A stretch of DNA of 64,000 nucleotides from a virus (taxonomy: Duplodnaviria; Caudoviricetes). Within the stretch, counting starts at the first letter, position 1; every line of letters starts with the position of its first letter. The DNA lies in IMG/VR virus record IMGVR_UViG_3300030061_004132, positions 29,724 through 93,723 of that record, one strand, 5' to 3'. Of this stretch, positions 29,570 through 59,344 are shown piece after piece. Both the position numbers and the translations under genes were made by a program. The notes beneath the pieces are model-generated. The model did not search any database and was not told the origin of the DNA. It was given only the letters and a program-made list of their open reading frames with translations.

Positions 29570-30190
29570 TATATTTGCAAATCTCAAAATTTACTTTGGT
29601 GGTTTTTTGCCTTTCCATTTGTCAAGCATGTTTAATATTTTATTGCCTATCTTTTGTAACACCTTACGCATATTCTCACTCCTTTAATCTAGAAAATTTT
29701 TACCGCCGTTTTTTCTTGCCGAGACCAGTGAAACCTCCATTTTGTTTAATATCGCCCAGGGGGAGATAGAACTCACTTGGGGTAGTGGGGGGTAGTATAC
29801 TCTCGTGGGGTTAGTAAGAGCAACATACGCATTTCTAAATCTCCAAATTTTTTATGCGTACCGCTCGTGTACCAGGGGCTGGGCGCGGGTAGCGGGCTAG
29901 GGTAGCACTCACATTCCGGGGGGAGGGGGTAGTAGCTCCTCCCACTAACATTATAACACACTTGCCCTAGTAAGGCAAGCACAAACTTGTCAAGCTAAAA
30001 TAAAACGTATGTCAACTCCCCCTAGTAGCTATTGACAAAGGGGGAGTAAGGGGATAGTGAGCTGATCTGCTCCTACCCTCCTCTCGCACCCCATCTCTAC
30101 CCCATAGAAAACAATAAACTTTTTCTTGTTGCGGAGTGAAGGGGACCACTAGGGTCCACCCTCCCCCACTTCCTCCCACTTCTCCCCCTA
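29570..30190. other. non-coding boundary between late and early zones, with G-tract clusters
   Basis: No credible ORF; five G3+ runs at 29875-29902; minus-strand TTGCCT-N17-TATAAT at 29950-29978. Confidence 0.55.
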
Positions 30191-38295: not shown

Positions 38296-38708
38296 TATGC
38301 CCCCTTTTCATTCGGAGTAGGAAGGACTGGGGTTGCGGGAGGGACATGCAGGAACGCCTGCTCCTCGTCCCACTCAAGCGACACGGTATAGTTCTTGATG
38401 ATGTCCCAAGGGTTCTCGTACCAACCCCCCACGTTACCCTCTGTGGACTCTGGGTAGTCGTGACAAGCCTCCACAATAAGATAATCCTCATCGTCGAAGA
38501 CACTGACTAGTTCGCTATAGAGATTTATCAAACCGTTGTCGCTGGTGTTATACCATTTAATATGCTCTTCATAGAAAAGAACATGGCCATCCTGTGACAC
38601 GCTTGCTGGCTGTACGAACCACTCATCAAGAGTCTTCCTAGACTTTGCGCTAAGATTATCAAACACTTCTTTTTTTAATGCTACTGCGACATCACTACGG
38701 ATACCCAT
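38295..38708 (-). CDS. conserved phage hypothetical protein
   Basis: MGIRSDV...IKWY. Confidence 0.7.
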   Translation of the reverse strand: MGIRSDVAVALKKEVFDNLSAKSRKTLDEWFVQPASVSQDGHVLFYEEHIKWYNTSDNGLINLYSELVSVFDDEDYLIVEACHDYPESTEGNVGGWYENPWDIIKNYTVSLEWDEEQAFLHVPPATPVLPTPNEKGA

Positions 38709-38766
38709 TGTTAGCTCCCTGTTGTTGTATTTACAGTTTAATGAATAAAGTTTGCGCCGTCAAGTA

Positions 38767-38973
38767 TTAATCGTCATAGACTACTGCGTAGCCGTTTGAC
38801 TCGATATAGTCAATAGCGTCTGCTTCCAAAGCATCGATGGTGTCAGGATTTGTGTCATCATCTACATCTTCTAGCCAGTCCACCCAGCCAAGGCTCTCGG
38901 CGAAGCTAAGTGTCTCACCGAAGCACTCGTAAGTGTAGATTGTTTTTAACTGCCCTTGTATGATCTCTGTCAT
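38767..38973 (-). CDS. acidic early protein
   Basis: Own promoter and leader. Confidence 0.6.
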   Translation of the reverse strand: MTEIIQGQLKTIYTYECFGETLSFAESLGWVDWLEDVDDDTNPDTIDALEADAIDYIESNGYAVVYDD

Positions 38974-39030
38974 GTTTTCCCCCTGTTGTGTTTATATCTT
39001 AATCTGTCGTTTCAGTTAAGTCAAGAAGTT

Positions 39031-39396
39031 TTATGCTTCGATGGGTTCTGGGGGGATGATGACAATCGTGTTTTTGGGATCCTTCATGACCTCAGAAAAC
39101 TTCTGGGGGTTGAGGACTCTCATGTCTTCGTCAACTACGACTTGAAGAGCCGCAGCGGGTCCATAGTTTTGGCGGCGCTCTTCTGCGGCTGCGTCCACAA
39201 TAAGACCAGTAAGTTGCTTTGCTAAGTCACCAATCGCGTCAGTCAACTCTGCGGTAGCCTCTTTGCTAGAGTCTTTGTCTACTCCGCTCAAGACAAGGTG
39301 ACCCGTCTCCAAACCAGACTTAACATAAACTAAAGCGTCGGCCAAGTCCAAAACAGTCTCGACGTCCATGCTCACTTTTGCTTCACTATCTTTCAT
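39031..39396 (-). CDS. early hypothetical protein
   Basis: Own promoter. Confidence 0.6.
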   Translation of the reverse strand: MKDSEAKVSMDVETVLDLADALVYVKSGLETGHLVLSGVDKDSSKEATAELTDAIGDLAKQLTGLIVDAAAEERRQNYGPAAALQVVVDEDMRVLNPQKFSEVMKDPKNTIVIIPPEPIEA

Positions 39397-39454
39397 TGTG
39401 TGCTCCCCTTTGGAAACTACTTATTGTTTAATACTGAACCTGTCAAGAAAAAAT

Positions 39455-40095
39455 ATAAAGGGTAGGAGCTTTAGCATATGTAGTCTCCATACTTGTGACC
39501 ATCTGCGGTAGATGTATACACACCGGGGTTTAAGTCCGTTCACAAGTTTCCTCCCTGTTCTTACTATCTCTAGCACGGAACAGCACGCTGTACTATCGGC
39601 AAATGTTCTGCGTTTAATCAGAGAGCTAGCTACTCTCTCATCAAGTGCGCCTTACACTTCAACAGCTTGGTACTGCATCCATGCAAGCCCTTTCGGGACG
39701 ATTGTCAAGTTGCCCCAACAACCAGAGAGGCTTCCACCCCCGATAGTTTGACTCTGCGGAACGACCCGCTTACCAAGAAACCGTTCTTAGTAGTTTGGTG
39801 TTTACCGTTGCCGCGATGAATCAACAAGTCCGCGACTTTCATTGGCAGCACTCCAGCGGTGGTACGCTGACTCTTGCCTTCAAGCACTGAGCAATGTTCG
39901 GGACTACCACGTCCTTTAACCTGCTCCCCTTCAAGTGTAGGCCCCAGCACTTGCTTGAACAAGCTACTATCCTACAAGGGTTTTCTCTATTGTCCGATAT
40001 GGACACCCAAAGAGCGGTAAACAACTCACGGGGGTTTATCGACCGGAGAACTCGGTCACGTTAGTAATGTTAAAGATCAATAAAACTTTCTGTTT
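39455..40095 (-). ncRNA. candidate large (~630 nt) highly structured ncRNA
   Basis: Promoter TTGACA-N17-TACATT (40101-40129), no SD or credible ORF, many local and long-range helices, T-rich 3' end. Confidence 0.75.
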
Positions 40096-40140
40096 CCATC
40101 AATGTAATGTGTTGTGTATTAACTGTCAATAATATTTTTT

Positions 40141-40335
40141 AAAAAAGATGAGGGGTGTCAAGACCACCATAGCAACCTGCTTGACTTCAGGCCACAACAC
40201 AACAGAGAACAACTGCTATGGTGGAGGATACCTTTCGTAGTACCCTTAGAAAATGTAGTAGCCTACTTGACGATTATTGTTTGAATCCCAACATCGGTAC
40301 GCGGTCTACGTTACACTCCCTAATCCCTCACTTGT
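40141..40335 (-). ncRNA. candidate ~190 nt regulatory sRNA with GU-rich seed
   Basis: Promoter TTGACA-N16-TATATT (40342-40369), 5'/3' closing stem plus U6 tail, 11-bp hairpin displaying UGUUGUGUUGUG. Confidence 0.7.
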
Positions 40336-40365
40336 ATTTACAATATAACCTGTCTATAAACCCTG

Positions 40366-40593
40366 TCAAGTAGAATCTGGAAAAGAAAGAACATTATCTT
40401 TGTCGTCCATCTCGGACCCATCTTCCTCTTCGACTTCTTCGACTTCTTGTGCGTGAGCGTCTAGTTCTTTATACCTCTCCAGAATGGAGCGCACGCCCCG
40501 CGCTGCCAGAACAGACTCTTTGGCACAAGACTCTAGGTACTCTGCCATACTCTCGAAAAACTCTAAGGGCAACTCAATCGTTTCTTGATTCAT
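40366..40593 (-). CDS. acidic hypothetical protein
   Basis: Coupled (ATGA) to the ardC-like gene. Confidence 0.6.
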   Translation of the reverse strand: MNQETIELPLEFFESMAEYLESCAKESVLAARGVRSILERYKELDAHAQEVEEVEEEDGSEMDDKDNVLSFPDST

Positions 40594-41459
40594 GCGGCCT
40601 TCTCCTTTTTAATATCGTGCTCCATAATAAGATTTGAAGCCAACTGTGCAGCCTTAGCCGCACGGTACACAGCCCTCTTATCATTACGAAGCAAATCTAG
40701 CCATGAAGAAATGTAACTTTCTTGGTTTTGCATCACCTCTGGGCGTTCGATGCCCAGTTTGGCGCACAAGAACGCCGAACCCATAGAGGCAATCATCTCC
40801 TCAAGAGCGAAGGCCTCTTCGTCTTTGCCAAAGTTATCGCGGTTGAGCCTGCTTTTGTGGCCGGTACTGTGAACCATCTCTTGCAGAAGAGTAGCCCAGT
40901 AGTGGTCCGCTGTGTGAAACTGCTCTGGGTCCGGTAACCCAATGAGATCAGTGTGAGCTTTGTACCACGCGCTGTCCTGTCCGTGCAGAACTTTAGCACC
41001 ATAGCCGCCCAAAATAGCCGAGCATCGTTCATAACCGACACTTGGGTCTTGAGGACAAGACTCAACCACTGGGGGGTTCTCGCACTGCTCCGCATTGTAG
41101 ACACGGTAGTACCGCAAGAAAGGAATCTTCTGGACGGTGCCATCCCCGTTATCCTTGTCAAACATATTCCAGAATACGATTGGGGTCCAGTTCTTGGCCT
41201 CATCGGACTTAATAGTGATTTTAGCCTTCTTAGCTTGATTCCAAGTGATCCAACGAGAGTCGTCGTAACCAGACGCCCAGAGAAGCGGAACATTAATACC
41301 TGTGTAGGTCTGCCCCTCCTCCGGGTCCATCGAGGTCATGTTAAAAGGAAGTCCTGCCATCGCACCATTCTTCCAAGGCTTACTCCACGGGGGAGTGCCA
41401 GCCTCAAGAGCAGTAATGATGCGGTCAGTAACCATTTGATATACATCGACTTTAGCCAT
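40590..41459 (-). CDS. ardC: ArdC-like antirestriction/ssDNA-binding protein
   Basis: YQMVTDRII..LE.G.PPW.KPW; Y.GIN..LL; W.T.NQ; ..HSTGHKSRLNR; EE.IA..GSAFLC. Confidence 0.88.
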   Translation of the reverse strand: MAKVDVYQMVTDRIITALEAGTPPWSKPWKNGAMAGLPFNMTSMDPEEGQTYTGINVPLLWASGYDDSRWITWNQAKKAKITIKSDEAKNWTPIVFWNMFDKDNGDGTVQKIPFLRYYRVYNAEQCENPPVVESCPQDPSVGYERCSAILGGYGAKVLHGQDSAWYKAHTDLIGLPDPEQFHTADHYWATLLQEMVHSTGHKSRLNRDNFGKDEEAFALEEMIASMGSAFLCAKLGIERPEVMQNQESYISSWLDLLRNDKRAVYRAAKAAQLASNLIMEHDIKKEKAA

Positions 41460-41692: not shown

Positions 41693-42868
41693 TTAATCTT
41701 TACCAATCGCTAGAATCTTCTCATTCGTCTGGAAGTACGGGTTCTTTGCGTAGTAGGGTGTAGTGATCCAGAGTCGCTGGCACTTAGAGGCGACCGGCTT
41801 TGCTGCACACATGTCCGTAAGAACAATATGCCCATCGAAGTTACGCTGGTTGACCCACTTGGTAGGGGGGTTGAAGTCGGTCCCGCCGTACCTGACGCGA
41901 GTCCAGTCTTTAGTCTCTCCCTTACGCCAGACATATACAGAGTCCTCACATACCTCGCTGTCGAAAGGAACGACTGTGAAGGTCGCTAGCTTCGCAAACT
42001 TGTTCAGCAGGGAAAAGAATGTTTTAAGCATCTCGTCATTCACGGAACCAGACTGGTCGATGGAGATGGCGATGTTTGCCACCCTCTTCACCCTCTTTGC
42101 GGGCCACTGATAGGGTGCTCGCTTGTTTACTCTACGAACCGTGCTCTGCTTGTTGCTAGCCTGCGATGTCTTGATGAAGTAACGCAGAACCTTCGCAGGG
42201 TCAATCGTTTTGCTGATAGACTTCCTGAGTTTATTCCTGACTTCGCTTGGCACGGAGCCATAAGATTTATTCTCTTTCTCACACTCTTGGACTGCTTCGG
42301 CGATTACCTCTCGCAATCGTTCCTCGACCACATCCTTCATTCCTTCGGGCACCTCGCCCCACCCGTCATGGCTGTCGAGAGTGTCAGGGAGACTGTTGCC
42401 TCCCTCGCCTTCGCCGTCGTCAGACTCCTCTTGCTCCTGCTGCTCCTGCTTCAGCTTTTCGAAATACCACTCGGCAGCCATGCCAGAGGGCCAACCTTCA
42501 AAGTGGCCCACGCCTGGAATACAGCCCTCTTGCGGTAGCTTATCTGCGATGTGACCATTGATGGCTAAGTCCGCAGCTACGTTCCACAGCTTTGTCATAC
42601 CCTCTTCGGGGAGTCGCGTAGTGACGTGCTTAAAGAGGAGGTGGTAAAACTCGTGCATGAGCACACCAGTGCGCTCAACATCTGTTAGTCCTTCCATCCA
42701 AGTCGGGTTGTAAAGCATCTGTAGCTTACCCGTCTCTTTGTCGGCCCAGACCCCAGCAGTGGGGACCGCCGTGCTTGGCTTCTTGCTGACCCTGCGGGAT
42801 ATTGCCGCGAAGAACGGCTCGTCCAGCAGAAGTCTATGTGTGTGCCTGTTAAGATCAAACTTGGACAT
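41693..42868 (-). CDS. DUF2201-type metallopeptidase + vWA protein
   Basis: VLMHEFYH, WNVAADLAIN, SIDQSGSV, GGTDF, LTDM. Confidence 0.88.
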   Translation of the reverse strand: MSKFDLNRHTHRLLLDEPFFAAISRRVSKKPSTAVPTAGVWADKETGKLQMLYNPTWMEGLTDVERTGVLMHEFYHLLFKHVTTRLPEEGMTKLWNVAADLAINGHIADKLPQEGCIPGVGHFEGWPSGMAAEWYFEKLKQEQQEQEESDDGEGEGGNSLPDTLDSHDGWGEVPEGMKDVVEERLREVIAEAVQECEKENKSYGSVPSEVRNKLRKSISKTIDPAKVLRYFIKTSQASNKQSTVRRVNKRAPYQWPAKRVKRVANIAISIDQSGSVNDEMLKTFFSLLNKFAKLATFTVVPFDSEVCEDSVYVWRKGETKDWTRVRYGGTDFNPPTKWVNQRNFDGHIVLTDMCAAKPVASKCQRLWITTPYYAKNPYFQTNEKILAIGKD

Positions 42869-42926: not shown

Positions 42927-44027
42927 TTAGTTAATCGACACGCCGCTGAGTAGCTCGACCATAACGTTCTTAACACTAGACCCACTAGAGGTCGTAGCGT
43001 TGTGGAAGTTATGACTATTCTGCTTGGCAACAGAACCATCACCCTCCGTTGTCTTTCCAAGGGTGTACCACAAGCGCATTGCGACCTCAGAAGGCAACTT
43101 GGCGAAGTAGTTGGCGAGATTTCCAACTTGCTCGTCGGTGAGAACTGACTTCACATAAGAACTGTTTTCGATACCGTCAACCATAGCGGTGTGCTGATTA
43201 ATGTCCCAGTCATCGGTCAGGTGGTACATACCCCCATCCACAATATCCTCGACCGTTACAATCTTTTCGTAGGTTGAGACAAAATCAGTGAACGCCAAGG
43301 CACCCTCAAGGCCAACAAAGCCACATGCAAGGTCACGAATCACGTTCAAGTTTGACTTCGGAGAGTTCATAAGTCCACTCCGTGTGATTACTTGGTTGAG
43401 ACGGTCCCAAGAACGACGACTTGGGTAGACCTTATTGGGTTCAAAGTCATCCGTATGCTCAAGGTGGCCACGGTTGTTGTTAATAAAGTCCCAGATAATC
43501 GGTGCCACCTCAGCCTTTGCCCACAACAGCCAGTCCTCAATCGAAGGCTCAAGGTCGTAAACAATCCAACGATCAAGAGCCGCTGGGTCCATCTCGCCAA
43601 CCTGATAGTGTGCGGCGTGCTCACCACCATTCACGGCAGAAAAGATGATGGTGCCGGGATGAAGATGCCACCCGTTCAACTTGCGGGAGTCCCCAAGTTC
43701 AAAGATAGACTGGCGGACTTCGTGGGTGCCACGGTCCACCTCATCAAGAAACAAGAGACGAGGGTTGTCGCAGCAGTCCTTGAACCAGTCGGGTGGGTTC
43801 CAAGTAGTAGTTTCCTCCTCCATCTTTGGTAGGCCGAGAATATCACCCTCGGTCATCTGGCTAATGCGCCGCTCAACTACCTGCAAGCCGAACTTCTCGG
43901 CGTACTGGTAGACGACTTGGCTTTTGCCAACACCGTGGCGTCCCCGAATCATCACGGAATAGTTTTCCGCGTCAGTGTTGATGACGCTGTTGATGACAGT
44001 ATCAAAGGTTTGAAAATCAATAGACAT
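42927..44027 (-). CDS. MoxR-like AAA+ ATPase
   Basis: GRHGVGKS Walker A, LFLDEVDRG Walker B, MDPAALDR, PSRRSW. Confidence 0.88.
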   Translation of the reverse strand: MSIDFQTFDTVINSVINTDAENYSVMIRGRHGVGKSQVVYQYAEKFGLQVVERRISQMTEGDILGLPKMEEETTTWNPPDWFKDCCDNPRLLFLDEVDRGTHEVRQSIFELGDSRKLNGWHLHPGTIIFSAVNGGEHAAHYQVGEMDPAALDRWIVYDLEPSIEDWLLWAKAEVAPIIWDFINNNRGHLEHTDDFEPNKVYPSRRSWDRLNQVITRSGLMNSPKSNLNVIRDLACGFVGLEGALAFTDFVSTYEKIVTVEDIVDGGMYHLTDDWDINQHTAMVDGIENSSYVKSVLTDEQVGNLANYFAKLPSEVAMRLWYTLGKTTEGDGSVAKQNSHNFHNATTSSGSSVKNVMVELLSGVSIN

Positions 44028-45457: not shown

Positions 45458-45541
45458 TGCCCAAGGCGGGACTCGAACCCGCAAGCCCAATGGGGCGACA
45501 GATTTTAAGTCTGTTGTGTATACCTATTCCACCACTTGGGC
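45458..45541 (-). tRNA. tRNA-Leu(TAA)
   Basis: Cloverleaf with long variable arm; anticodon loop CTTAAAA. Confidence 0.93.
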
Positions 45542-45545
45542 AAAG

Positions 45546-45622
45546 TGGTACGCCCTAGAGGATTCGAACCTCTGACCCTCGGCTTAGAAGGCCGATGCTC
45601 TATCCAACTGAGCTAAGGGCGC
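45546..45622 (-). tRNA. tRNA-Arg(TCT)
   Basis: Cloverleaf; loop CTTCTAA; encoded CCA. Confidence 0.95.
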
Positions 45623-45629
45623 AAAATCC

Positions 45630-45821
45630 CTAAGCTCTTAACTTGTCGAGGTGTTGCCTCTGTTCCTCGTACTTTCCAAGATTAGCCTCGACGTAATCTT
45701 TTACCTTCAATAGTTTATCAAGATAATGATATTTTGTCCAGCCATCATTTCGTGGACTTTCAACTTCTATAATCCATCGCTGTAGCTGTCCGATAACTTC
45801 CGTCTCAGAAAATCTGTTCAT
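45630..45821 (-). CDS. hypothetical protein
   Basis: SPRNDGWT motif; SD GGGAG. Confidence 0.6.
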   Translation of the reverse strand: MNRFSETEVIGQLQRWIIEVESPRNDGWTKYHYLDKLLKVKDYVEANLGKYEEQRQHLDKLRA

Positions 45822-46098
45822 CCTACTACTCCCGTAAAAAGAATAACGTAGAAGCCCAAAAGAGCCATCATAGAATATTCAGCGTAATCCATACTCCCTC
45901 CATACATAAAATATTAACGTCTTGGTTACAGGCTGTCAAATCTTATTTGCCCTGACCCCGATACTTTTTTCGGTAACCCTTCGGAACAGTGCCGTTTGAG
46001 TTGAGGGCTTTAAATTTTGTCCTCTTCCCATTTCCAATGCTTGTTTTCTTACCAAGACCGTGTTTAGTGGCCCTCTTATTATTGCCTTTAGCCATTTT

Positions 46099-46290
46099 TT
46101 ACTCCTTATAATAGTTAGAAAATCCCATAAAGGTTGGTGCCCAAAGCCCAACAAAAAGTGCTAACCGCTCAATATGAGCCGCGTCTACACCACCTGTGTT
46201 CCAGATAACAACTGAGCCTGCAATCGACACAATTGTTGCCACTAGAAACCCATTCGAGATTTTATTATTCTTTTCTAAATACTTCATCAT
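46099..46290 (-). CDS. small membrane protein
   Basis: ERLALFVGLWAPTF. Confidence 0.6.
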   Translation of the reverse strand: MMKYLEKNNKISNGFLVATIVSIAGSVVIWNTGGVDAAHIERLALFVGLWAPTFMGFSNYYKE

Positions 46291-46338
46291 TCCTCCTGTT
46301 ATTGTAATAACCTATTTACATTTCTTGTCAACTAAAAA

Positions 46339-46411
46339 TGAGTCTTCAGGGACTCGAACCCTGAACCTACGGATTAAAAGTCCGGTGCTCTACCAATTGA
46401 GCTAAAGACTC
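46339..46411 (-). tRNA. tRNA-Lys(TTT)
   Basis: Cloverleaf; loop CTTTTAA. Confidence 0.95.
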
Positions 46412-46417
46412 GTAAAG

Positions 46418-46494
46418 TGGTGGGCCTACTGGGACTTGAACCCAGGACCGCAGCTTTATAAGAACTGTGCTCTAACCACCTGAGCTATAGGCCC
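46418..46494 (-). tRNA. tRNA-Ile(TAT)
   Basis: Cloverleaf; stem CAGTT/AGCTG, loop CTTATAA; encoded CCA. Confidence 0.9.
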
Positions 46495-46706
46495 ATAAGG
46501 GTGCCGGTGGTTATCTCTGAACACATGAGACAGTGACCGGAGTATGTCTCGCTTAGGTTCTATGTGCGGTCGTTCAATAACATAATAGTTAAAATTTATT
46601 TGTCAATCAGAATAGTTACATTCGTATTTTCCGTAAACGTAACCTACCCAGAACGCTATAAAGTGCGTTCCCAACATAAGACATAAACTCAAATGACACC
46701 TCCTAT

Positions 46707-46928
46707 TTACATAATATAATTACCATAACCGTTTTCACTAGCACACTCTCGCGAACAATATCCGTGATACAAAATGTGCTCAGGATCTTTTTTGGCTCCA
46801 GACCATTTGGGTAACGACTTACCGCAAGTCGTACAAATCGTAAACTTCCCATACAGAAGACGATTGTCTTCGTCCATCTGTCCGTGCCAAGGCTTCCAAG
46901 CGCCATCGCTCATTATCTCCCCCACCAA
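46707..46928 (-). CDS. small zinc-finger protein
   Basis: CTTCG...YCSREC. Confidence 0.55.
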   Translation of the reverse strand: MVGEIMSDGAWKPWHGQMDEDNRLLYGKFTICTTCGKSLPKWSGAKKDPEHILYHGYCSRECASENGYGNYIM

Positions 46929-46937
46929 TATAAATTG

Positions 46938-47011
46938 CGCCCCTTACTGGATTTGAACCAATGACACGCGGATTAACAGTCCGCTGCTCTAACCAACTGA
47001 GCTAAAGGGGC
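46938..47011 (-). tRNA. tRNA-Asn(GTT)
   Basis: Cloverleaf; loop CTGTTAA. Confidence 0.93.
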
Positions 47012-57203: not shown

Positions 57204-58769
57204 TCACTCAGTTTCCACTATGGCGAAATTAGTCGTTAATAGGGTTGATGCAGCGGACGCTGCGTTTTGTAAGGCACACCTTGTGACCTTAACAGGGTCT
57301 ATTACACCAGCTTCAAACATATTAACAACTTCATCTTGCACAAAATCATAACCCGTCTCGGGACCTTCGTCAACAATCCTCGACGTAATTATGTCTGGTG
57401 ACAGCCCGGCGTTTTGGCACATCTTCCTAAGGGGCTCGTACACTGATGACATAATAACATCAACACCGACCTGTTGTTCAGGGTTATCTACAGTAATTTC
57501 CAAGTCTTTAGATGCCCTTATGAGCGCTATTCCACCGCCGGGAACCATTCCCTCCATCCTGGCCGACTTAACCGCCTCTAGTGCATCTTCTACTCGGTGT
57601 TTCTTCTCAATCATTTCAACCTCAGTTGCAGCACCGACTTTAATGATTGCTACCCCGCTGGCCAGTCGCGTCACCCTTTCCTGGACCAACTCCGCCTCGC
57701 GGATAGAATCTGTTTGGCCCAATACAGCTTTAAGGGTCTCGATTCTATTATCGATCTCCTCCAGATCGCCCTTGCCTCCAACAATAATTGTTTCATTCTT
57801 TTTGATGAAAATTCTTTGAGCAAGCCCCAGGTGTTCGAGTTTGGCATTCTTTAATTTGATAGAACTGTCAATATACTTTGCGTTTGTGGCAACACAAAGA
57901 TCCATCAAAATGTTTTTCCTCTCCTCACCATACTTGGGTGCTTTAACAGCAACGACCTTCATGGAGCCGCGCATTGAATTCATAATCAGTGCCGCTAGTG
58001 CCTGCCCCTCGATCTCAGGCGAGATAATAACGAGGGCCCTGGCTTCTCTGGCTACCACCTCTAGGATTGGCAGCAAGTCCTGTAGGTTGTCAACCTTCTC
58101 CTCAGTGACCAAAATTAAAGGATCGTCATATTTAACTGATGCCGATCTCTCGTCAGTTATGAATGCTGTCGCCGCGTAACCAGAATCAAACCTAAAACCC
58201 TCAACCAAATCAAGGGTAGTATCAATAGACTTGGCCTCTTCCACCGTTACTGAGCCATCTTTCCCGGCACAGCTAATTGCCTTAGCAACTAAAGCGCCTA
58301 TGTGTACGTCGTTGTTAGAAGAGATGGTGGCAATGTGACGTATGTCGTCCTCAGTTCTGATTGGAGTAGACATCTCGGCCAAACGATCAACCAACCCTGC
58401 CACAGCCTTATCTATCCCCCTCTTTAGCTCTATGGGGGATACTCCCGATAGAACATACTTTTGTGATTGTTCTAAAATAGCCCTTGCAAGCACAGTTGCG
58501 GTAGTAGTTCCGTCACCCGCCAAAGAGTTGGTTTCTTCGGATGCCTGTTTGAGAATTTGTACCGCTGCGTTTTCGAAAGGATCTTCCAATTCAATAAATT
58601 TTGCAACCGTAACTCCATCTTTAGTTATGATCGGATTTTTATTTTTTGCAGCCAAGATAACATTTCTGCCCCTCGGACCTAGTGTAGATGCGACATTGTC
58701 AGTCAGCTTTTTGACACCACTTAAAATTTTGCTTGTTAAAATATTACCGTCACTGTAAATCTTGCTCAT
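57204..58769 (-). CDS. groEL: chaperonin GroEL
   Basis: TLGPRGRNV, ITKDGVTVA, AGDGTTTATVLA, GVIDPVKV; start MSKIY at 58769; no GGM tail. Confidence 0.95.
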   Translation of the reverse strand: MSKIYSDGNILTSKILSGVKKLTDNVASTLGPRGRNVILAAKNKNPIITKDGVTVAKFIELEDPFENAAVQILKQASEETNSLAGDGTTTATVLARAILEQSQKYVLSGVSPIELKRGIDKAVAGLVDRLAEMSTPIRTEDDIRHIATISSNNDVHIGALVAKAISCAGKDGSVTVEEAKSIDTTLDLVEGFRFDSGYAATAFITDERSASVKYDDPLILVTEEKVDNLQDLLPILEVVAREARALVIISPEIEGQALAALIMNSMRGSMKVVAVKAPKYGEERKNILMDLCVATNAKYIDSSIKLKNAKLEHLGLAQRIFIKKNETIIVGGKGDLEEIDNRIETLKAVLGQTDSIREAELVQERVTRLASGVAIIKVGAATEVEMIEKKHRVEDALEAVKSARMEGMVPGGGIALIRASKDLEITVDNPEQQVGVDVIMSSVYEPLRKMCQNAGLSPDIITSRIVDEGPETGYDFVQDEVVNMFEAGVIDPVKVTRCALQNAASAASTLLTTNFAIVETE

Positions 58770-59344
58770 GATACCTCCATATTTTCTGTATGATTTGGCA
58801 AGGTCAAAACACCCACAGAGAACCCGCGCAAGCCAGCATCTCCTTCCCACGCGCCTTCGTTCATTCTGTAACCCTTCTTTATGCTGCTTTGTATAATTTT
58901 AACTCCCAAGTCGGGGGAGTTCTCCGTAGGACAATACGCTAAATAAGTGTGCCCATACGAGCCATTCACCACCTCATCGTCCTCCATCGTTTCCTTGTCA
59001 TTCAACTCAAGTTTGCGCCATCGCTGTATGACATGCCATCTACCAGGAGTTAGCGGTGGGGCCTCGTCCTCAACAATGGCACAATAAGATATGTCTCCAC
59101 CCAATTTTTCTCGGATTGCTTCCAAGGCACTCCAGGGTTTATCGCGATCATAAACATTTGCTCGCTTCCACCAATCAAGGTCTTGACCAGCGTAGCGTGA
59201 CACTGAGCTTTCGCGAACGTCATCCGCTATACTAAGACACCACATTGCACAAAGCGTGCAACATGGCAAGTTTTCTTTAGTGGCGATATGGTTTAATGCG
59301 CCACCTTTGTTCAGGGCAGTCCAACCCTTTATATCTATGTTCAT
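58766..59344 (-). CDS. putative Cys/His peptidase (NlpC/CHAP-like)
   Basis: PCCT...IQRW...GHTYL. Confidence 0.5.
   Translation of the reverse strand: MNIDIKGWTALNKGGALNHIATKENLPCCTLCAMWCLSIADDVRESSVSRYAGQDLDWWKRANVYDRDKPWSALEAIREKLGGDISYCAIVEDEAPPLTPGRWHVIQRWRKLELNDKETMEDDEVVNGSYGHTYLAYCPTENSPDLGVKIIQSSIKKGYRMNEGAWEGDAGLRGFSVGVLTLPNHTENMEVS

Follow-up and report, generated by a model that had tools for sequence, protein, structure and literature searches.

A large pseudoknotted non-coding RNA of uncultured marine phages that matches no catalogued RNA family

The RNA gene described here lies in a 64,000-nucleotide stretch of DNA (the window, to which all coordinates refer) that covers positions 29,724 to 93,723 of the virus record IMGVR_UViG_3300030061_004132 (Duplodnaviria; Caudoviricetes). 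The completeness of this 93,723-base contig is estimated at 26%, and the phage is therefore probably large. The RNA gene region is a gap between minus-strand genes. An ArdC-like anti-restriction gene (40590-41459, minus; Pfam ArdcN and MPTase-PolyVal) and an open reading frame (ORF) of 75 amino acids (aa) are located upstream, and a 121-aa ORF (39031-39396, minus) with no Pfam match is located downstream. Between them, an RNA of ~650 nucleotides (nt) extends from 40094 to 39446 on the minus strand; its unmapped ends were placed from a promoter, which sets the start at ~40094, and from a U-run. A reading of the region made from the sequence alone, with no database searches, had proposed a promoter-driven, pseudoknotted non-coding RNA at this position. 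The promoter that it had reported, TTGACA-N17-TACATT, is indeed present on the minus strand as a sigma-70-type promoter (40129..40101) with a -35 element TTGACA at 40129..40124, a 17-nt spacer, and a -10 element TACATT at 40106..40101, matching 10 of 12 consensus letters. At the other end, the last hairpin, GGAG...CUCC, is followed by UACCCUUUAUAUUUUUU (39446..39489, minus), forming a terminator that is weak in the window (-6.2 kcal/mol). The stretch 40094..39446 on the minus strand is a stand-alone non-coding RNA gene with its own promoter and a terminal hairpin with U-run.

Relatives of this RNA were found by way of neighboring proteins and conserved words. No match was found when the region was compared by blastn with 50,697 phage records. 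A search with the ArdC-like neighbor led to a single related IMG/VR contig (G001), whose RNA part is 92% identical and which is without 230 bases that lie upstream of the promoter in the window; searches of viral contigs with the ArdC-like and 121-aa proteins returned G001 only. The 121-aa protein had 10 relatives among 5.8 billion proteins, and an alignment-based scan led to three further loci, L008, L009, and L010. Exact-word scans with invariant 16-mers led to L041 and then to a second clade (L066, L067, L068, and L076), and a gapped pattern searched in species genomes led to L078, in a bin titled Halobacteriovorax sp., and L079, in a bin titled Flavobacteriales bacterium. Both are probably phage contigs that were binned with cells, and the bin labels are weak host hints at best. 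Every homolog was supported by nhmmer (E values of 1e-49 to 1e-249), while 60-odd other word matches were rejected. In viral contigs, the exact words GATTAAACGCAGAACATTTGCC and GGCAACTTGACAATCGTCCCGAAAGGG were found only in G001; the word CAACGGTAAACACCAA gave 30 stretches, of which G001 was the sole real one, and CGTCCCGAAAGGGCTT gave 12, none beyond L041 and G001. Two further candidates, L024 and L026 (E value of 0.008), lie inside a 482-aa ORF and were set aside as chance matches, and L080, from the genome scan, was rejected by nhmmer. In total, 12 places hold the RNA, and 11 of these were aligned, leaving out L076, in which the RNA looks the same as in L067. The aligned sequences fall into clade 1 (the window, G001, L008, L009, L010, and L041) and clade 2 (L066, L067, L068, L078, and L079), which are ~60% alike. 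Clade 1 homologs are 82 to 99.8% identical; identity to the window is 99.8% for L008, 93.4% for L009, and 81.9% for L010. The adjoining 121-aa protein is 58% identical in L009 and 56% identical in L010, and the RNA is thus more strongly conserved than its neighboring gene.

The limits of the gene recur across the family, in genomic neighborhoods that are unrelated between the clades. A -35/17-nt/-10 arrangement was found by regular-expression search at an equal relative position in 10 of the 11 homologs, with a text that is TTGACA/TACATT-like in clade 1, TTATAC/TATACT-like in clade 2, and TTGAAC/TATAAT in L079; L067, the homolog outside this set, reads TTAAAC-N17-TATAAC when inspected by eye. 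Furthermore, a hairpin with a U-run terminates the RNA in all homologs. The clade 2 terminators are strong and their stem sequences are different, and both L041 and L079 carry an extra canonical terminator behind the end of the RNA. These boundaries bear on the possibility that the RNA is a cis-acting leader, riboswitch-like or an attenuator, of the downstream 121-aa gene. The same small gene comes after the RNA in the window and in G001, L009, and L010, and the weak terminator of the window would suit a leader. However, this gene has a TTGACA promoter of its own (39447..39442, minus), directly after the U-run of the RNA and before the start codon; L041 and clade 2 have unrelated downstream genes, some of them on the opposite strand, behind strong terminators; and 650 nt far exceeds the length of known leaders. 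A cis-acting leader is therefore most improbable.

Folding of the two strands gave different results. The minus strand reached -225.5 kcal/mol (z score of -4.49), with 0 of 20 shuffled sequences folding as well, and the plus strand reached a z score of only -1.32, with 3 of 20 shuffles as good. In the base-pair model described below, 149 of 1,217 cells (one base pair in one sequence each) are G-U or U-G. As these would mismatch on the opposite strand and only the minus strand folds beyond its shuffles, the minus strand is the RNA strand. The absence of a credible ORF, which the sequence-only reading had claimed, was borne out: the longest ATG-started sense ORF is 45 aa in the window and 18 to 71 codons across the homologs, and a search for a conserved protein ORF found none common to the homologs. 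The region might be suspected of coding for a protein, or of being the remnant of a coding gene, on one strand or the other: an open frame of 210 codons runs antisense in L068, and blastp links the antisense ORFs of nine loci. However, the antisense frame spans only 87 to 108 codons in the other four clade 2 sequences (88 in L079) and 79 to 164 codons in clade 1, and the blastp cluster arises because the DNA itself is conserved. In addition, 50 of the 63 indel runs have lengths that are not divisible by 3 and so break the frame, a 3-base period of substitutions was not seen in nine sequence pairs (chi-square P values of 0.15 to 0.94), and Pfam gave no match for the ORFs of the window that were tested. 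We consider a coding origin extraordinarily unlikely.

The Rfam comparison that the sequence-only reading had suggested, covering GOLLD, ROOL, OLE, HEARO, RNase P, and introns, was run and returned no family that matches the RNA. With Rfam 15 at gathering scores, nothing was found at the RNA, while a transfer-messenger RNA (tmRNA) and five transfer RNAs (tRNAs) were found elsewhere in the window. When E values up to 10 were allowed over 39300-40450, a single hit appeared, snoR124 (40241-40299; 19.7 bits, cut-off of 70), which lies outside the RNA. Eight homolog loci with a total of 52,725 bases, searched at E values up to 1, yielded six tRNAs and, away from the RNA, two chance hits below threshold. 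By this test of Rfam models, the RNA lies outside GOLLD, ROOL, OLE, HEARO, RNase P, introns, tmRNA, and 6S, because none of them matches. Literature searches, in which most subscription journals were not covered, found no description of such an RNA.

ROOL is described, in an extract from PMC12286853, as phage- or prophage-borne, often near tRNA genes, and several hundred nt long, with multiple pseudoknots and conserved loop-loop pairs; the same extract gives it no known protein partner and calls its function unknown. The RNA studied here resembles ROOL in its phage contig, in a tRNA array 5.4 kilobases (kb) off, and in having at least six crossing contacts, and it differs in matching no Rfam model, in its sequence motifs, in a boxA-like leader, and in having been found so far only on marine phage-like contigs. 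It resembles GOLLD in that its 5' domain differs between clades while the center and 3' part are kept, and in a self-complementary apical loop present in 9 of the 11 sequences; it differs in having no Rfam match, in its length of ~650 nt against often more than 800 in GOLLD, and in lacking an embedded tRNA. A very divergent GOLLD or ROOL member that the Rfam models missed would share this setting, since the RNA is phage-borne, 600 to 800 nt long, and pseudoknotted, with tRNA genes within ~1 to 5.5 kb in 6 of 11 places. Against this, the Rfam models gave no hit in eight homolog loci at E values of up to 1, nor in the window even when E values of up to 10 were allowed. We regard such membership as very unlikely. 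The sequence-only reading had left the choice between a divergent member of this class and a new giant RNA; the second holds, for a covarying, pseudoknotted non-coding RNA of ~650 nt, and the first found no Rfam match.

The strongest evidence for the RNA is the conservation of its fold. An all-column-pair search for stacked covarying helices in the 11-sequence alignment assembled 21 helices with 111 pairs. The 3' end had been misaligned between the clades by MAFFT, and the 3' part was therefore counted on a separate L-INS-i alignment of 10 sequences. In the 111-pair model, 98.2% of the 1,217 cells are standard pairs, compared with a mean of 84.6% in shuffled controls and 39 to 46% in slid controls, and 0 of 500 shuffles reached the observed value on any of five measures. 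Both sides changed in 55 of the 111 pairs (5 to 14 in slid controls), with a covariation score of 0.527 (0.07 to 0.12 in slid controls). The 3' domain together with pseudoknot F comprises 24 pairs, 100% paired and with 10 both-sides changes, against 40 to 57% and 0 to 2 when slid. RNAalifold counted 15 double-change pairs with four sequences and 59 of 132 pairs with eight. When the single-sequence fold of the window was compared with G001, 15 of 20 affected pairs were kept (2 by double changes) and 5 were broken, and 14 substitutions fell on unpaired positions. Collectively, ~135 base pairs are kept through many compensatory changes, and the covariation among homologs on which the sequence-only reading had staked its proposal is present.

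The fold can be followed from the 5' end; all positions are on the minus strand. The first hairpin, GACCG-AGUUCUC-CGGUC (40041..40057), is helix 1 of the model. Its loop letters UUCUC (40050..40046) can pair with GAGAA (39987..39983), within the invariant UAGAGAAAACC, as candidate pseudoknot A, which is 100% paired with three invariant pairs and two that vary on one side to wobble; with no both-sides change, it is compatible everywhere and unproven. Next, the hairpin CUUGU-UCAA-GCAAG (39963..39950) carries pseudoknot B, in which the loop UCAA (39958..39955) pairs with UUGA (39934..39931). Both are 100% paired, with both-sides changes in three of five hairpin pairs and two of four loop pairs, UCAA/UUGA becoming UCUU/AAGA in clade 2. 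Two adjacent arms follow. Arm 1 has stems 39926..39921/39894..39889 and 39914..39911/39904..39901 and the loop GUGGUA (39910..39905); arm 2 has stems 39878..39875/39847..39844 and 39870..39865/39858..39853 and the loop UACCAC (39864..39859). The four stems are 95.5 to 100% paired, with both-sides changes in 5 of 6, 3 of 4, 2 of 4, and 6 of 6 pairs. The two 6-nt loops, already recognized as complementary in the sequence-only reading, pair in 98.5% of cells, with two of the six pairs changed on both sides and two to wobble: they read GUGACA/UGUCAC in L068 and GUGGAA/UUCCGC in L067 and L078, with one U-U mismatch in L066. Neighboring arms with pairing, covarying 6-nt loops recall the purine riboswitch, as a resemblance of motif and not as family membership.

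The central part is closed by an 8-bp helix between ACUAUCGG (39747..39740) and CCGAUAGU (39599..39592), which had been predicted from the window alone and is kept in both clades (98.9% paired; three of eight pairs changed on both sides). Ahead of it, the hairpin GUCGCGG...UCGCGGC (39836..39830/39816..39810) is 100% paired with 3 of 7 both-sides changes, and its loop UUGAUUC (39824..39818) forms pseudoknot C with GAGUCAA (39754..39748), 64 nt downstream, again 100% paired with 3 of 7 both-sides changes. Pseudoknot D is formed by CUUGGUA (39777..39771) and a hairpin loop ~100 nt downstream, UACCAAG (39672..39666) (98.7% paired; 3 of 7 both-sides changes), and reads UCUGGCA/UGCCAGA in L041 and CUUGGGA/UCCCAAG in clade 2. 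The hairpin that bears this loop is enclosed by helix 19 (39687..39681/39657..39651), which is 100% paired with five of seven pairs changed on both sides. An 11-bp stem with an invariant GNRA loop, GCAA (39724..39699), is 94.2% paired with 7 of 11 both-sides changes. The GAAA-capped hairpin of the sequence-only reading is CCC-GAAA-GGG (39697..39688) and is invariant across the homologs. Pseudoknot F joins CCUCUCU (39730..39724) to AGGGAGG (39556..39550); all 10 sequences form its seven pairs as standard pairs, with C-G, U-G, or U-A as the first, and it adjoins an invariant helix, CUGUUC/GAACAG (39583..39578/39560..39555).

In the 3' domain, three helices are 100% paired: CUUGUG/CACAAG (39546..39541/39497..39492; 4 of 6 both-sides changes), CGG/CCG (39538..39536/39526..39524; 1 of 3), and CAUC/GAUG (39514..39511/39503..39500; 1 of 4). 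Pseudoknot E connects GUGUAU (39521..39516) with the last hairpin, whose loop contains AUAUGC (39479..39474); the pseudoknot is 100% paired with three of six pairs changed on both sides and reads GUGUUC/GAAUGC in clade 2. The RNA therefore contains at least six pseudoknot-type crossing contacts, namely, the kissing loops and pseudoknots B, C, D, E, and F.

Other helices of the sequence-only reading fared differently. All five helices that it listed exist as complementary stretches in the window, but two sets are not conserved across the homologs. In the stacked 7- and 9-bp helix (39642-39659/39933-39953), only 76% and 66% of cells are paired; it is broken in clade 2, L041, and L010, and its strands belong to other, covarying helices. 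Similarly, the 6-bp helix 39462-39467/39970-39975 is not kept, with unpaired cells in four of six pairs among the six clade 1 rows with letters. The separate, perfect 9-bp helix between UGUUUACCG (40023..40015) and CGGUAAACA (39807..39799) holds in all six clade 1 sequences, with two compensatory changes in L041 and a wobble in L010, and in none of the five of clade 2, which instead have a local covarying hairpin (CUCAGG/CCUGAG; UCUGGA/UCCAGA in L079). No partner was found for the invariant 14-nt loop of this clade 2 hairpin, UGGAAUUACUGGCY (alignment columns 95-125). Thus, the RNA and most of the details are real, unlike the helix that had been taken for the framework of the fold.

Several further helices were considered and left out of the model. 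A long helix between the GCAUGGAUGCAGUACC and CGUGCUGUUCCGUG regions, given by RNAalifold for clade 1 alone, is not kept in clade 2, and helix 19 and pseudoknot D were used in its place; the ACCCCCG/CGGGGGU helix from the same clade 1 fold was also set aside. A local ACCAA/UUGGU helix, which competes with pseudoknot D and has 3 bp left in L041 by eye, may be an alternative state. A 4-bp CCCC/GGGG helix (40033..40030/39740..39737) clashes with the covarying local hairpin of clade 2, and short "covarying" helices of 3 to 4 bp were ignored, as they are expected by chance given two deep clades.

Large ribozymes typically combine such a size with numerous pseudoknots and GNRA tetraloops, and the RNA could accordingly be a ribozyme or a self-processing or mobile RNA, such as an unrecognized intron-like or self-cleaving element. 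Its different places in different phages would fit a mobile element: the neighbors are PhoH/PIN and cytidylyltransferase genes in L041, a DNA ligase gene in L066, an RNase H-like gene in L079, and a gene for a collagen-repeat protein in L068. However, none of the Rfam 15 models for group I or II introns, RNase P, or ribozymes matches it; the RNA is not inserted in a gene, and its limits coincide with the promoter and terminator in every homolog; and no reverse transcriptase or homing nuclease adjoins it in the loci examined. This alternative is improbable.

The leader of the RNA contains a boxA-like element, GAUCUUUAACA (40068..40078, minus). With the preceding U included, UGAUCUUUAACA (40079..40068) matches 11 of 12 letters of the Escherichia coli rrn boxA UGCUCUUUA extended by the first letters of the spacer, and UGAUCUUUA (40079..40071) matches eight of nine letters of the boxA word itself; the reference word and spacer were taken from an extract of PMC2724277. 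All 11 homologs contain the pattern G-N-UCUUU-D-A-M-A with UCUUU invariant, 18 to 42 nt behind the -10 element in the 10 homologs with a regular-expression promoter, while the surrounding leader is variable. In 8 of the 11 homologs, the word is preceded by a small hairpin whose end lies 2 to 4 nt away. This order of hairpin and then boxA, early in a long, untranslated, structured transcript, resembles the boxB and boxA of rrn leaders. In contrast to rrn operons and lambda nut sites, the element lies in a phage RNA gene, and its third boxA letter varies (A, U, or C). In ribosomal RNA operons, NusB/NusE counters Rho on long untranslated RNA, according to an extract of PMC4807359. By analogy, the boxA-like leader may recruit host NusB/NusE, which would shield the long untranslated transcript from Rho and aid its folding during synthesis.

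The RNA also occurs in environmental libraries. Parts of a 1.6-kb stretch around it are held by 20 sequencing runs of 16 studies, all of them labeled marine or seawater, and six of these are RNA libraries. Contigs of four metatranscriptome runs, from four studies, lie on 39511-40049; one is 516 nt long with a depth of 188 and 96% identity, and many are diverged pieces. The sequence of the transcript predicted by the sequence-only reading is thus present in contigs of four RNA libraries, although these contigs do not show strand, ends, or level. The flanks (38500-39507 and 40096-41000) have no contigs from the four RNA runs except for one low-depth contig of run X18 at 40344-40568, a comparison that is uninformative, as the runs were found with the stretch around the RNA and the flanks diverge faster. 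The X18 contigs that end at 39534 and 40049 do so in letters that we take to be Illumina adapter, a weak hint of fragment ends. Together, the homologs define an RNA family that is carried by large uncultured marine phages and is uncatalogued.

Five tRNA genes (45458-47011, minus; Rfam 15) lie 5.4 kb from the RNA in the window, placing it beside a tRNA island in a setting of the GOLLD/ROOL type. G001 has tRNAs Leu-UAA, Arg-UCU, Lys-UUU, Ile-UAU, and Asn-GUU at an equal distance from the RNA (L006 5476-7553). The places with tRNA genes within ~1 to 5.5 kb are the window, G001, L066, L067, L076, and L079; in L041, L068, L078, L009, and L010, which are short loci, no tRNA gene was found. In L079, four tRNA genes and the RNase H-like gene surround the RNA. 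Farther away, the window encodes the tmRNA (2540-2893, minus; 104.1 bits in Rfam, full length at model positions 1-374 of 374), a GroEL-like chaperonin (57204-58850; Cpn60_TCP1, E value of 3e-64), and a MoxR-like AAA_5 ATPase adjoining a DUF2201 metallopeptidase/VWA protein (42927-44027 and 41693-42868).

A second small structured unit (40132-40369, minus) lies directly upstream of the large RNA. It has a promoter TTGACA-N16-TATATT (40369..40342; 11 of 12 consensus letters), a closed three-arm fold of ~200 nt (-65.9 kcal/mol; z score of -3.61; 0 of 200 shuffles as good), and a U-run end at ~40140, and it is without an Rfam match. The unit is missing from G001 and L009 and ~70 nt shorter in L008, and L010 has its 3' end; one arm shows a compensatory change from the window to L008, CCUG...CAGG to CCCG...CGGG. 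The word (C)TTGACAG(G) heads this unit, the large RNA, and the 121-aa gene (minus strand, 40364-40369, 40124-40129, and 39442-39447) and is conserved in G001, L009, L010, and L041.

We consider it very likely that this is a real and new gene for a structured RNA that acts in trans; the mechanism is far less certain. Host RNA polymerase would make the RNA early in infection, and the finished RNA would act in trans as a compact structural particle and not as a messenger RNA leader. The most likely mechanism, which we propose tentatively and by analogy, is a self-associating RNA scaffold or particle of the GOLLD/ROOL kind. Perfect self-complementary hexamers number three to eight per sequence, and a single alignment position (39632..39627) holds one in at least six sequences. 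This apical loop (39627..39632, minus), a candidate RNA-RNA self-contact, reads UAGCUA in four clade 1 sequences and UGUACA in all five of clade 2. A palindromic hexamer loop recalls the dimerization initiation site of human immunodeficiency virus type 1, a resemblance of motif in which an intra- or intermolecular contact is not readable from the sequence. The self-complementary loop, and possibly the complementary loop pair too, would join RNA copies. In an extract of PMC12286853, ROOL is reported by cryo-electron microscopy to be a multimeric nanocage and GOLLD a 14-mer, both made of RNA only; GOLLD cages are held by kissing loops, some of them self-interacting, and loop-loop pairs of ROOL and GOLLD, initially recognized from covariation, turned out to link one copy to another. 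The RNA may, on this analogy and with considerable doubt, be a third phage "ornate" RNA, an RNA-only multimer (a dimer or closed cage) formed through the 39632..39627 loop and perhaps GUGGUA/UACCAC, and made early under a chaperoning Nus complex.

As the next most likely mechanism, a host or phage protein, such as a ribosome part, a nuclease, or a defense sensor, could be tied up by the RNA, which would serve as a decoy, sponge, or scaffold and work as a ribonucleoprotein rather than as an RNA-only assembly. Long stretches are invariant yet unpaired (UAGAGAAAACC, AAGGCAAGAG/GAGUGCUGCC, and ACGUGCUGUUCCGUG) and resemble protein or tertiary contact sites, and the early-type promoter would fit. 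In addition, OLE functions together with proteins, and binding of GOLLD to ribosomes has been reported from pull-down experiments (extract of PMC12286853). However, the invariant unpaired stretches suit RNA-RNA tertiary contacts equally well, and a dedicated phage protein partner is not indicated, because no protein gene accompanies the RNA across clades in the loci examined. This is possible but rather doubtful.

Several observations weigh against a trans-acting, self-associating RNA gene as proposed here. The family was found in just 12 places. The terminator of the window is weak, so that read-through into the next gene is possible. The counts of compensatory changes overstate the number of independent events, because the helices were chosen on the same 11 sequences, which form two deep clades with sub-branches, and the slid control answers this selection bias only in part. 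Pseudoknot A, the GAAA hairpin, and CUGUUC/GAACAG have no both-sides change and thus lack support from covariation. Furthermore, the 5' domain differs between the clades, the 9-bp helix being absent from clade 2, and the hexamer loop is imperfect in L010 and L041 (UUGCUA). The boxA-like word is no rarer than chance in the window (two matches with 1.7 expected), and its meaning accordingly lies in position and conservation. Finally, the support from RNA libraries is weak, because it consists of assembled contigs and DNA may be present in the libraries.

To our knowledge, very large and intricately folded non-coding RNAs of unknown function are rare, those known being GOLLD, ROOL, OLE, and a few others. 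Three of the large RNAs were recently shown to form RNA-only assemblies (extract of PMC12286853). A further, unrelated family would widen this class of large folded RNAs and provide a well-defined new target for structural biology. It also raises the idea that phages borrow the antitermination signal of host ribosomal RNA for the synthesis of such large RNAs. Should it prove to self-assemble, or to sequester a host factor, the RNA would represent a new type of phage tool at the level of RNA.

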